Assembly: GCA_963674755.2 (NCBI GenBank) | Contig: CAXXVS010000001.1 | Location: forward strand, 864,001 to 928,000 | Direction of reading: 5' to 3' | From: Desulfobacterales bacterium | GTDB taxonomy: Bacteria > Desulfobacterota > Desulfobacteria > Desulfobacterales > UBA5852 | Length of the DNA stretch: 64,000 nucleotides | Part shown: in pieces, positions 52,199-55,989 of the stretch | How the letters are laid out: each line of letters opens with the position of its first letter | Position numbering within the stretch: the stretch's first letter is position 1 | Translations under genes and position numbers: made by a program | Notes under the pieces: generated by a model | Database searches by the model: none | What the model was told of the DNA's origin: nothing | What the model saw: only the letters and a program-made list of their open reading frames with translations

Positions 52199-52273
<75 letters not shown>

Positions 52274-52284
52274 CTGATAATATC

Positions 52285-52322
52285 AGGGGCTTACAGTATT
52301 TTGTAAGCCCCTATTTTTTTTT
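52285..52322 (+). terminator. Intrinsic terminator after tRNA-Glu
   Basis: AGGGGCTTACA-6 nt-TGTAAGCCCCT perfect 11-bp stem followed by a T-run. Confidence 0.8.
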
Positions 52323-52362
52323 GTCCAAGGGAAAAGGGGTCAAAAAGGGGTCAAGTCTGCCC

Positions 52363-52391
52363 TTGACGCATACTGATGTTTTTTCTACTTT
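52363..52391 (+). promoter_or_regulatory. Sigma-70 promoter of the transposase, -35 inside the left TIR (predicted leaderless mRNA)
   Basis: TTGACG-N17-TACTTT; ATG begins 7 nt after the -10 ends; no Shine-Dalgarno. Confidence 0.55.
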
Positions 52392-52397
52392 CCTTTC

Positions 52398-53375
52398 ATG
52401 TCACGTCCACTTCGCATTCAATATCCCAATGCTTGGTATCACGTAATGAACCGTGGCAGGCGCAGGGAGTCCGTATTTGAGTCTAAAGATGACTTTCAAC
52501 TATTTTTAGATATCCTGCATGAAACCATTGAGCTGTTTTCTCTTCGCATCAGTGCCTATTGCCTGATGACCAACCATTATCACCTATTGGTTCAAACCCC
52601 GGATAGCAATTTGTCTCGTTGTATGCGTCATATCAACGGCGTTTATACCCAGCGATTTAATGCCGCCCATGGTTTGGATGGTCAGCTGTTTCGCGGTCGC
52701 TATAAGGCGATATTGGTGGGTGAAGACAGTTATTTGTTGCAACTGGTTCGGTATATCCATAAGAATCCCGTGCGAGCCGACATGGTGAAGAGTGCCGAAC
52801 TATACGAATGGTCGAGTCACAAAGGCTATTTGTCCAAGGCAAATAAGTGGGACTGGTTGCATAAGCAAATGATCCTGTCGATGATCACCAAAGATCAAAA
52901 ACAGCAGCTAAAAGGGTATCGCGCCTTTATGGTCGAAAACGAAAGCGAATCGTTTTTAGAAAAAATGAATTTAAAGAAATTACCGTCCGTACTCGGAGAA
53001 CAGGCTTTTGTTAGGATGATCAAGGATAAATTCTTCGAGCGCAAGCGGCATATCGAAGTGCCGGAGTCCAAACGCCTGGCCCCGAGCACCGATCGAATTA
53101 TAAATGCCGTATGTGTGAACTATGGTATGGACGAGGCGCAACTGTTGCTCGCCAAACGCGGTACGATAAATGAAGCCAGAAGCTTGGCGATTTATTTATT
53201 CCGGTATATGAGGGGGGCGTCGCTGAATGATATCGGCAAGACTTTCGATATCAGCAGTTACAGCACGGTCAGCAGTATCATTGAAAGATTTAAAGCCCGC
53301 ATGCATTCCGATCGAAAGTTATCACGCAAGGTCGAAATGTTAAGGGAATCTCTAATGCGTCAAGGGCAGACTTGA
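52398..53375 (+). CDS. REP-associated tyrosine transposase-like protein (Y1_Tnp) with C-terminal DnaA_C-like HTH
   Basis: MSRPLR...YHVMNRG, HUH motif MTNHYHLL, catalytic YIHKNP, YEWSS, C-terminal SLNDIGKTF...YSTV. Confidence 0.9.
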   Translation: MSRPLRIQYPNAWYHVMNRGRRRESVFESKDDFQLFLDILHETIELFSLRISAYCLMTNHYHLLVQTPDSNLSRCMRHINGVYTQRFNAAHGLDGQLFRGRYKAILVGEDSYLLQLVRYIHKNPVRADMVKSAELYEWSSHKGYLSKANKWDWLHKQMILSMITKDQKQQLKGYRAFMVENESESFLEKMNLKKLPSVLGEQAFVRMIKDKFFERKRHIEVPESKRLAPSTDRIINAVCVNYGMDEAQLLLAKRGTINEARSLAIYLFRYMRGASLNDIGKTFDISSYSTVSSIIERFKARMHSDRKLSRKVEMLRESLMRQGQT

Positions 53376-53436
53376 CCCCTTACGCTTGACCCCTTACGCT
53401 GACCCCTTACGCTGACCCCGTACGCCCCGTACGCCC
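53373..53436 (+). repeat. Tandem TGACCCC(T/G)TACGC repeats outside the right TIR
   Basis: TGACCCC at 53373, 53387, 53400 and 53413, then decayed GTACGCCC(C) units. Confidence 0.9.
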
Positions 53437-53565
53437 GCCGCCATGGACGGCCGGTGTCCCCCCAAAAAAATACATGATTACCCGCCTTGACTTTGTATAA
53501 GAATCCGTTCTAAGGCCTGATCACTGTGCATAACCTTCTGTCTTTATTCAGATCCACACGATTCC

Positions 53566-55989
53566 ATGACAACACTTGAGATGCCCACAGGAAAACCTTC
53601 TATGGATCAACCCCCGCAGGTTGGGCTTCCAGGGCGCATCCTGGTGATCGGCGACGATGCCAATGAGCGGCGGGCGCTGGAAGCGATTTTAAGCGGTGGC
53701 GGATTCGAAGTCATCCGTTCGATTGATGGATTGCGGGTTCCGAAGCACGTGTCCCAAAGCACACCCGATGCCGTTTTGCTCGCCTTCCGTCAATTCGATG
53801 GGGAAGCGCGCGACCTCTGCCGGCATTTTAAAACGGACCCCCGTACAAGCGCCATTCCGCTGATCGGCATCTGCGACCGGCAGGATCCTGACGCCCGGGT
53901 TCAAGGGCTTGCGGCCGGCTGTATCGATAGCATTACCAGGCCCTATCCAGACCAGGAGGTGCTCCAGCGGGTGCGGACCTATGTCAGGCTCTTCCGTCTT
54001 GAGCGGCATCTGGCCGAACCGGGCACCCCGGACGCCGCATGCCATGATGGCGTCGATATCGGAGATCGCCTGCGATTCGAGCAGCTGATCGCGAACATGT
54101 CTGCCCGGTTCATCAACATGCCCCCCGAACGCCTCGACACTGAAATCGAGAACGCTCTGCACATGCTGCTGGAGTTTTTCCAGGTCGACCGGTGCGGTTT
54201 GCTCCATACCATGCCGGACCATAAGGCATGGAAAATCACCCATGCGGCCTATTCGGAACACGCCACCCCGGTGCCCCGGGGCACCCAACTTCCCCGGTCG
54301 ATCAACCCCTGGGCCTTCGATCGACTTACGAAAGAGGGCCAGGTGGTAGCCTATACCAGGATGGACGACATTCCGGAGGCGTCCGATGCGGACAAGCAAA
54401 CCTGGAAGGACTGGGGAATACGCTCCAACCTCACCATGCCGATCCTCAAGCGCGAGTCCATCGTCCACCTTATTTCCATCAATGCCTTACAGAAAGAACG
54501 GGTCTGGCCGGAGGTATTCTTCCCCCGGCTGCAGTTGTTCGGCGAAATTCTCGTCAACGCGCTGGAGCGGCGGGAAATCGAGCAGGCCCTGCGCGAAAGC
54601 GATGAGCGGCTGGATATGGCCGCCTCTTCGGCCGAGGCCGGCGTGTGGTCCCTGGATGTGGACGCGGACCGATTCTGGGTTACCGACAAGCTGCGCCATA
54701 TCTTCCAATTCGCCCCGGACGAGGAGCTTAGCTTCGGACGTTTTCTGGAAGCGGTCCATCCGGACGACCGGGAAATGGCCGAGGCGACTTTGGTCCATTG
54801 CCGCGAGATACGCGATCTGGTCCGTTTGGAATACCGCATCGTGCTGCCCGACGGCAGACTTCGCTGGGTGGTTTCCAGAGGGCGGTCCTTTCCCCGGACG
54901 CCTACCCAACCGGAGCGCGTCATGGGGGTTACCATGGACATCACCCCGCGCAAGACCATGGAGGCGCGGATCCAGGCCCAACTGGAAGAGATTCAGCGGC
55001 TGAAGCAACAACTGGAGCAGGAAAACGTCTACCTGCGCGACGAAATCAAGCTTCGCCAGGGCCACGAAGGGATCATCGCCCACAGCCGGGCCATGAAACA
55101 TATTCTGGCCCAGGTGGAACAGGTGGCCGCCACCGACGCCACCGTTTTTATTTCGGGGGAGACCGGCACCGGCAAGGAGCTTTTGGCCCGGAGAATCCAC
55201 AGCCTCAGCCGCCGCAAGGACCGGATGCTGGTTACCATCAACTGCGCCGTGCTGCCCCCCACGCTGATCGAAAGCGAGCTTTTTGGCCGGGAGAAAGGCG
55301 CCTACACCGGGGCGCTCACCCGCATGGCGGGCCGTTTCGAGGTGGCGGACCGCTCCACGCTGTTCCTGGACGAGATCGGCGAGCTGCCCCTCGACCTGCA
55401 GGCCAAACTGCTGCGCGTGCTGGAAGAGGGACGCTTCGAGCGGCTGGGCTCCACCAAATCCAAGAAAGTCGATGTCCGCATCATTGCGGCCACCAATCGC
55501 GACCTTCCCCAGGAAGTGGCAGCGGGCCGCTTCCGCAGCGATCTCTTTTACCGCCTGAACGTTTTCCCCATTTCCATTCCGCCGCTCCGGGAACGTTTGG
55601 AGGATATCCCCCCGCTGGTATGGATGTTCGTCAGACAGAACGAGATGAAATTGGGCAACCGGATCGATCGCATCCCCCGCAAGCACATGGAAGCCCTCAA
55701 GCGCTACGGCTGGCCGGGCAATGCCCGGGAATTGCGCAATATCGTCGAACACGCCATGATCATCAGCCGCGGCGGGATCCTGGAGGTCCATCCGCCCGAT
55801 AACCCAACCCAAACCGCACCTTCCACGGGAACCCTGGAGGAAGTCGACCGCCGGCATATCCTGAGCGTACTGGCCAGGACCGGCTGGCGCGTCACCGGTA
55901 AAAACGGGGCCGCCGAAATCCTGGGACTGAAGCGCACCACCCTGCAGGCCAAAATGAAGAAGCTGGGGATCAAACGCCCTTCCGAATGA
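53566..55989 (+). CDS. Sigma-54-dependent activator (degenerate REC-GAF-PAS-AAA+-HTH, FhlA-like)
   Basis: [22 protein letters not shown] motif, [13 protein letters not shown]. Confidence 0.92.

Follow-up and report, generated by a model that had tools for sequence, protein, structure and literature searches.

The window, a stretch of 64,000 nucleotides from a Desulfobacterales genome (G000), carries a transposase gene enclosed by terminal inverted repeats (TIRs), beyond a tRNA-Glu gene and a terminator-like hairpin (Table 1). The whole unit is 1.04 kb long, with a GC content of 46% compared with 58-61% in neighbouring DNA. Its TIRs match perfectly (100%) over 27 nt, and the right TIR encodes the C-terminus of the transposase, M-R-Q-G-Q-T, and its stop codon. 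An earlier interpretation of the bare sequence (the sequence-only reading) had noted this exact pair, the overlap with the last codons and stop, a TGACCCC array and an extra GGGGTCA at 52336, all of which the sequence bears out. Its figure of 27 bp holds as an exact match, but the outer AA/TT is probably carried flank rather than conserved repeat.

No target-site duplication was seen in the flanks of the element. The dyad within the left TIR could form a 6-bp hairpin, which is weak (-5.1 kcal/mol, z -1.9). This internal hairpin was rejected as a requirement, given the weak fold and the retention of at least 5 of 6 pairs at only 51 of 121 ends. The element is single-copy in G000, where other, distant family members each have their own repeats. 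Six further, more distant TIRYT genes with GGGAC-type repeat starts lie in G000 at C1:626k and 1285k, C2:1645k, and C3:604k, 764k and 1282k.

Table 1. Positions of the element, its context and its miniature derivatives
Feature	Position	Strand	Details
tRNA-Glu(CTC)	52199-52273	+	context, outside the element
Terminator-like hairpin	52285-52312	+	context, outside the element
Left end ladder	52327..52344	+	one 11-nt tandem duplication, 52332-52342 (with GGGGTCA), starting 3-4 nt outside the G4 tip; probable 5-nt partial unit beyond
Left TIR	52345..52371	+	G4 tip 52347-52350; internal dyad GTCAAG (52350-52355) / CTTGAC (52362-52367)
Predicted transposase promoter	52363..52391	+	-35 TTGACG within the left TIR, 17-nt spacer, -10 TACTTT ending 6 nt 5' of the ATG
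TIRYT transposase, 325 aa	52398..53375	+	HUH H60-Y61-H62; predicted catalytic Y119 (YIHKNP); WSS motif; C-terminal DnaA domain IV-like HTH
Right TIR	53355..53381	-	exact reverse complement of the left TIR; CCCC tip 53376-53379; covers the final six codons and stop of the transposase
Linker outside right tip, 6 nt	53380..53385	-	putative nick site 53385/53386, minus strand
Right end ladder	53386..53434	-	four further units, 14, 13, 13 and 9 nt long; + strand ends at 53399, 53412, 53425 and 53434
17 miniatures	G000 C1:486.8k, 729.7-730.7k; C2:1974-1978k; C3:882k, 1419-1436k, 2475-2494k	+ (of the contigs)	all in the same orientation

Domain searches find Y1_Tnp at residues 11-123 of the transposase (E 1e-15) and Bac_DnaA_C at residues 232-296 (E 2e-10). 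A profile search matches DnaA domain IV structures and E. coli TnpA-REP (4er8). The predicted structure (pLDDT 74.6) matches the ISDra2, IS608 and 4er8 transposases, with a Foldseek E of 7e-6 to ISDra2 TnpA, and DnaA domain IV with a TM of 0.86-0.88 over the target. In an alignment of 35 sequences Y119 is invariant, and H60 and H62 are kept at 90% or more.

The TTGAC of the left TIR is likely the -35 box of the transposase gene, as judged from spacing among homologues. In 19 of 25 homologues a TA-led hexamer follows TTGAC by 17-18 nt and ends 6-8 nt 5' of the ATG. TANNNT at a spacing of 16-18 nt occurs in 10 of 25, compared with a shuffle mean of 2.8 (maximum 8) and with 1 of 23 right ends. 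A generic promoter scan did not call the predicted transposase promoter. The mRNA is likely leaderless; a Shine-Dalgarno-like word is present in only 2 of the 25 homologues.

Relation to TIRtrons and other HUH systems

The element is a TIRtron, or TIRYT, a published but little-studied class that corresponds to TnpA-Y1 subclass 2.1.2 and RAYT group 1. The sequence-only reading had proposed a distinct HUH class, a suggestion overtaken by the literature: RAYT-like genes between TIRs were named TIRtrons/TIRYT in 2013 by Di Nocera, De Gregorio and Rocco (PMC3733652), and in 2018 Quentin et al. placed most TIRYTs in subclass 2.1, with a DnaA_C-like (Bac_DnaA_C/HTH) tail in 2.1.2 (PMC6006769). Subclass 2.1 is the second largest TnpA-Y1 subclass, found in 14.9% of strains (PMC6006769). 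Laurenceau equated it with RAYT group 1 (10.1101/2020.03.09.984088), which Bertels described in 2017 as the most IS-like RAYT group (PMC5581495). Five related genus names were searched in the available part of the PMC6006769 supplement, and none was found.

The marks of subclass 2.1.2 are NH[YF]H, Y[IV]HLNP, an SS motif, an HUH-Tyr distance of ~58-67 aa and the Bac_DnaA_C/HTH tail (PMC6006769). The window protein fits this set, with NHYH, YIHKNP (of the form Y-x-H-x-N-P), WSS, 59 aa from H60 to Y119 and a Bac_DnaA_C tail. Its score against NF047646 is 70.8 bits, under the cut-off of 80. TIRtrons have TIRs that overlap gene ends, dispersed TIR dimers and, in some or most TIRs, a GGGGWSAS motif that other TIRs lack (PMC3733652). 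Here too a RAYT-like Y1 gene, with HUH and a catalytic-type Tyr, is flanked by TIRs instead of REPs; the TIR is GGGG-led, partly self-complementary and overlaps the gene end, and TIR dimers are dispersed in G000 as 17 inverted dimers. The window-type start, GGGGTCAA, matches 7 of 8 positions of GGGGWSAS and differs from the published motif in having A instead of S as its eighth base. It is the commonest start, at 64 of 121 homologous ends, whereas strict GGGGWSAS fits 23 of 121. Close homologues number at least 7158.

That the element belongs to neither IS200/IS605 nor the classical REPtrons, as the sequence-only reading held, agrees with our searches. IS200/IS605 transposases (IS608 and ISDra2 TnpA) share the Y1 HUH fold, and such elements have a short TnpA, non-inverted subterminal hairpin ends and often tnpB. 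The window element instead has a 325-aa protein with an HTH, symmetric inverted ends where IS200/IS605 has distinct top-strand LE and RE hairpins, and no tnpB; the protein scores 22 against the NCBIfam IS200 cut-off of 55. With parvoviral Rep and other rolling-circle initiators, host synthesis is primed by the 3'-OH that an HUH enzyme leaves on nicking near an inverted end. This is a mechanistic analogy alone, as the architecture is unrelated and the window element has no helicase.

REPtrons and their TnpA-REP enzymes have a catalytic fold in common with the window transposase, as the 4er8 match indicates (PMC3333891, PMC8266576, PMC3116915). Unlike REPtrons (RAYT groups 2/3), the window element lacks a GTAG-tagged REP, and its protein has the additional HTH domain; among 45 genome-wide matches to a 13-nt core, inspected by eye, none is GTAG-tagged. 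REPtrons are also reported to be non-mobile as a unit, whereas the TIRtron gene itself appears to move as one. TnpA-REP cuts near but outside REPs, between C and T or between C and A (PMC8266576), and the window enzyme may likewise cleave beside, not within, the repeat it recognizes.

Ladders at the element ends

Short repeated units, which we call ladders, adjoin both ends of the element. TGACCCC starts at 53373, 53387, 53400 and 53413, and the right array then decays to 53434. From outer to inner its units are 9, 13, 13 and 14 nt long, with a common start 6 nt before the G run and differing inner depths. Parsing with a fixed outer start yields four units and explains 49 nt, compared with 39 nt for a fixed inner end, and no unit boundary falls between TGA and CCCC. 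Although TGACCCC/GGGGTCA occurs at 1077 sites in the genome, only six clusters have two or more within 30 nt, and five of these six are at ends of this TIR family. The arrays had been called telomere-like, a superficial likeness because each locus has its own unit.

The sequence-only reading had also raised the prospect of an assembly artefact, an explanation that is hardly credible even though the homologues come mostly from metagenome assemblies. A Logan contig from run X18 covers 53352-53900 with 0 differences and 0 gaps, as an independent assembly rather than an independent sample, since X18 is possibly the source data. Ladders also occur in cultured-isolate records (L036, L052, L053 and L058) and in the finished replicons NZ_LR134433.1 and NZ_CP045419.1.

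Variation of the array between strains is seen in assembled contigs from two runs that hold the same locus. The X21 contig has one substitution in the ladder and near-perfect 13-mers; the X22 contig (a single contig at depth 2.7) has different linkers and is missing 15 nt within 52320-52342. These same-site differences between X22 and the window, in linkers and in the left duplication, argue against a whole ladder having formed at insertion, through iterative templated synthesis during junction repair and with no later cycles. Such a one-off scar would account for the fixed outer breakpoint, as the insertion junction, and for the untemplated junction bases occasionally seen (L202, L207), but copies at different sites also have duplicated units in common, and we consider it quite improbable.

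The ladders are real, family-wide nested duplications. We collected 109 homologous loci; the window itself, two duplicates and 16 truncated loci were set aside, and the other 90 were scored. Inverted repeats of score at least 14 are present at 67 of the 90, compared with 2 of 74 control pairings, and left and right TIRs are 93% identical over 24 nt within a copy versus 59% between copies (55 pairs). The comparison of homologue flanks that the sequence-only reading had called for finds what it foresaw: the GGGGTCA ends are conserved, the interiors are copy-specific and co-vary, and each locus has its own linkers. Tip duplication or recurrence, defined as a tip-spanning tandem or a second tip hexamer within 45 nt, is found at 30 of 119 homologous ends versus 91 of 4249 other TGACCC sites in G000, and strict tandems at 16 of 119 versus 13 of 4249; the ends are related by descent, so kinship inflates these statistics and P values are overstated. 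Within these loci, 18 of 121 tips have strict tandems, versus 6 of 1151 other positions. Ladders are equally frequent on both sides (left 16/59, right 14/60), and three quarters of homologous ends have none.

A parse with a single start explains at least 9 nt at 36 of 155 ends (119 homologous, 2 from the window and 34 from miniatures), compared with 11 of 1500 random sites. For a second set, 201 genomes were searched with the motif, and 23 were positive, against 0 for the reversed control; the set leaves out G000 hits and the copy in the congener G005, its pairs derive from fetched loci, and L193 in it repeats L007. Exact tandems that include the linker and start 3-9 nt outside the G4 make up 19 of its 27 motif pairs. 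Separately, in the bases next to the G run on its outer side, left and right ends mirror each other above chance (mean run 1.96 versus 1.25, 55 pairs), which suggests palindromic targets or end-to-end copying.

Ladders might arise by slippage independent of the enzyme. Replication would stall at the G run, at a hairpin, at the 27-bp panhandle or at bound protein, and the nascent strand would realign, the transposase being a passive roadblock. Two units, once present, would allow perfect copies to be added, as with the near-perfect 13-mers of X21, and inner ends do cluster at the foot of the GTCAAG/CTTGAC dyad. Junction microhomology is at the level of chance, however (mean 1.0 nt versus a null of 0.76, P=0.18), with none at 9 of 20 junctions, and duplications are confined to the outer tip, being found at only 3 of 264 positions +30/+60 nt inside it. 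Slippage also leaves unexplained the single outer start for many unit lengths and the outside bases that copies carry, and we regard it as rather unlikely.

Where the units begin and end bears on where a nick would fall. The 20 exact innermost duplications start 4-14 nt before GGG[TA]C; their ends peak after GGGTC or GGGTCA and reach 34 nt. No common dinucleotide was seen by eye at the outer breakpoints. When a fixed outer start was set against a fixed inner end in 19 multi-unit arrays, the outer start fitted better in 9 and the inner end in 7, with 3 ties; at margins above 5 nt the count is 8 versus 3, and the largest margins (67, 35 and 29 nt) favour the outer start. In the second set the split is 1 versus 1, with 3 ties. 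This automated test is only moderately decisive. In the largest ladders (L038, L058, L071, L087 and L206), and by eye in the finished record L188, the outer start is fixed and the depth varies.

An enzyme that cuts in or beside TGACCCC, extends outward over the flank to a variable distance and religates would explain the two positions at which inner endpoints peak across loci, as well as the 7 of 19 arrays that a fixed inner end fits better, three of them clearly (L003 left, L059 left and one miniature). A cut between C and A is, besides, a known TnpA-REP site (PMC8266576). Against such an inner nick, the units in the window differ at the inner end and are constant at the outer one, with no boundary between TGA and CCCC, and in the longest ladders inner ends range from 0 to ~40 nt past the G run with one outer start. 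We judge it unlikely as the initiating event, although an inner cut is compatible with a nick outside the repeat if it comes second and terminates the unit.

Mobility and miniature derivatives

A 96%-identical element is located at a different locus in the congener G005, and the element is absent after this tRNA-Glu at 10 loci from 9 congeneric genomes. From these two observations we infer that it moves as a unit. tRNA targeting is not supported, the element being absent at the congeners' tRNA-Glu loci. The sequence-only reading had suggested looking for empty sites there in relatives, but no exact one was found among these loci, as the DNA downstream of the tRNA-Glu differs in every congener examined; nor do the flanks of the G005 copy have an adjacent match in G000. 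Contig joints that skip the interior of the element most simply represent miniature derivatives at other loci, not excision. TIRtrons are grouped in hotspots at some loci (L150, L157, L161, L162 and L163), 2-5 copies or fragments of them lying within 5-17 kb.

Three lines of evidence point to boundaries of the mobile unit that would lie a few bases outside the repeat. At most ends, 2-7 nt beyond the G run are common to near-identical copies from different sites: 5 and 2 at L150, 6 in L151/L152, 4 in L153/L154, 5 in L155/L156, 4 in L031/L048, 7 and 0 in L035/L037, and 6 in L052/L063, which possibly represent one orthologous site. Two pairs (L155/L156 and L157) have a duplicated unit in common at different sites. 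Outside the G4, the 17 miniatures conserve 4 nt at the left end (88-94%) and 5 nt at the right end (70-100%). The linkers, read earlier as adjacent host bases, are indeed locus-specific, but local host DNA does not account for all of them, as linker bases recur in near-identical copies from different sites. By contrast, only 1 and 2 nt outside the G4 are common to the window element and the G005 copy.

The miniatures in G000 are inverted dimers, ~57-62 bp long, of a close variant of the window TIR, and several carry ladders. They lie mostly among low-GC, co-oriented genes. An attC covariance model, trained only on the genome's own integron array, has 19 hits in the miniature-bearing regions, all on the strand of the miniatures, and 11 of the 17 miniatures are within 3 kb of a hit; the genome-wide scan scored 150 of 1276 candidates. 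The main integron array (G000 C2:2.32-2.34 Mb) contains no miniatures of the window-type repeat, and a search of 12 congeners for the exact miniature pattern found no match.

Other derivatives were observed in G000. A second miniature family, at C1:726.4-728.8k, has other TIRtron-type ends (like L047, L062 and L094), and one copy is apparently inside an attC-like site. An internally deleted remnant of a close relative (C2:1974130-1974235) retains the left repeat, 5' leader and 56 nt of coding DNA, and adjoins a miniature and a group II intron-like RT gene. At C2:1977407-1978104, an IS200/IS605-type tnpA element interrupts one miniature dimer.

A possible nick outside the repeat

In HUH chemistry the enzyme is held on the 5' end and a 3'-OH is left free. 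On balance we lean towards the view that the ladders are scars of abortive nick-extend-religate cycles, in which the TIRtron enzyme would nick a few bases outside the repeat. Its HTH likely binds the TIR, and binding over the predicted -35 would let the transposase repress the gene that encodes it. A nick by the HUH domain likely falls in the strand 5'-flank-GGGGTCA, ~3-10 nt before the G run, which in the window would be the minus strand at 53385/53386, and the enzyme would stay on the 5' end via Y119. Host polymerase would extend the 3'-OH into the repeat, mostly stopping or being re-cut after GGGGTC or GGGGTCA and sometimes continuing to a depth of 50 nt. The enzyme would then seal the new 3'-OH to the 5' end that it holds, so that one more unit lies beside the repeat and older units are pushed outward. 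Units formed in this way would have one outer start, vary at the inner end and require no homology, with the newest one innermost. Productive processing of both ends would move the element together with a few outside bases; the miniature dimers in G000 may be mobilized by the same enzyme family.

The arrays look like the record of enzyme activity that the sequence-only reading took them for, but the nick between TGA and CCCC that it proposed is probably not right in detail, since the duplications have their fixed point outside the repeat, 6 nt beyond the CCCC. Inner ends after GGGGTC/GGGGTCA cluster more tightly across loci than do outer starts, which suits an inner cut or a polymerase stall and counts against a nick outside the repeat; within the nick-extend-religate scheme, this peak might reflect a second, terminating cut or a stall. 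The split in the model test, the lack of a common dinucleotide at the outer breakpoints, the 1-2 nt shared with the G005 copy, the pair end with 0 nt shared, the lack of an exact empty site and the large share of ends with no ladder also count against it.

The scheme is that of the nick-prime-religate model for BIME amplification, in which the unit is terminated by a second cut, made on the new strand (PMC3333891, Fig. 7B). Tandem REPINs also take in flanking sequence (PMC3116915). Unlike BIMEs, which are amplified whole, the duplicated TIRtron units are 5-50 nt pieces of an end. The available excerpts of the TIRtron papers make no mention of tip ladders, carried flank, a TIR promoter or a cut site. 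A wider literature search found no description of end ladders, carried flank or a cut site, and no cut site or mechanism for subclass 2.1; it covered few subscription papers, so an earlier mention is possible.

More tentatively, and as a possibility that we would not yet call probable, TIRtrons could be autonomous HUH transposons with a third end chemistry. The HTH would read the double-stranded TIR, and the HUH domain would nick opposite strands a few bases outside it with little sequence preference. Abortive rolling-circle starts would be preserved as ladders, which would map the nick to the nucleotide; flank would ratchet from site to site, and integron cassette arrays would gather miniatures. 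Should binding be set by the HTH and the cut need almost no particular sequence, the targeting logic would differ from that of Y1 enzymes guided by a tetranucleotide. The ladders yield a nucleotide-level prediction for the cut, on the minus strand at 53385/53386, and would constitute genomic evidence for the nick-prime-religate model proposed for BIMEs.
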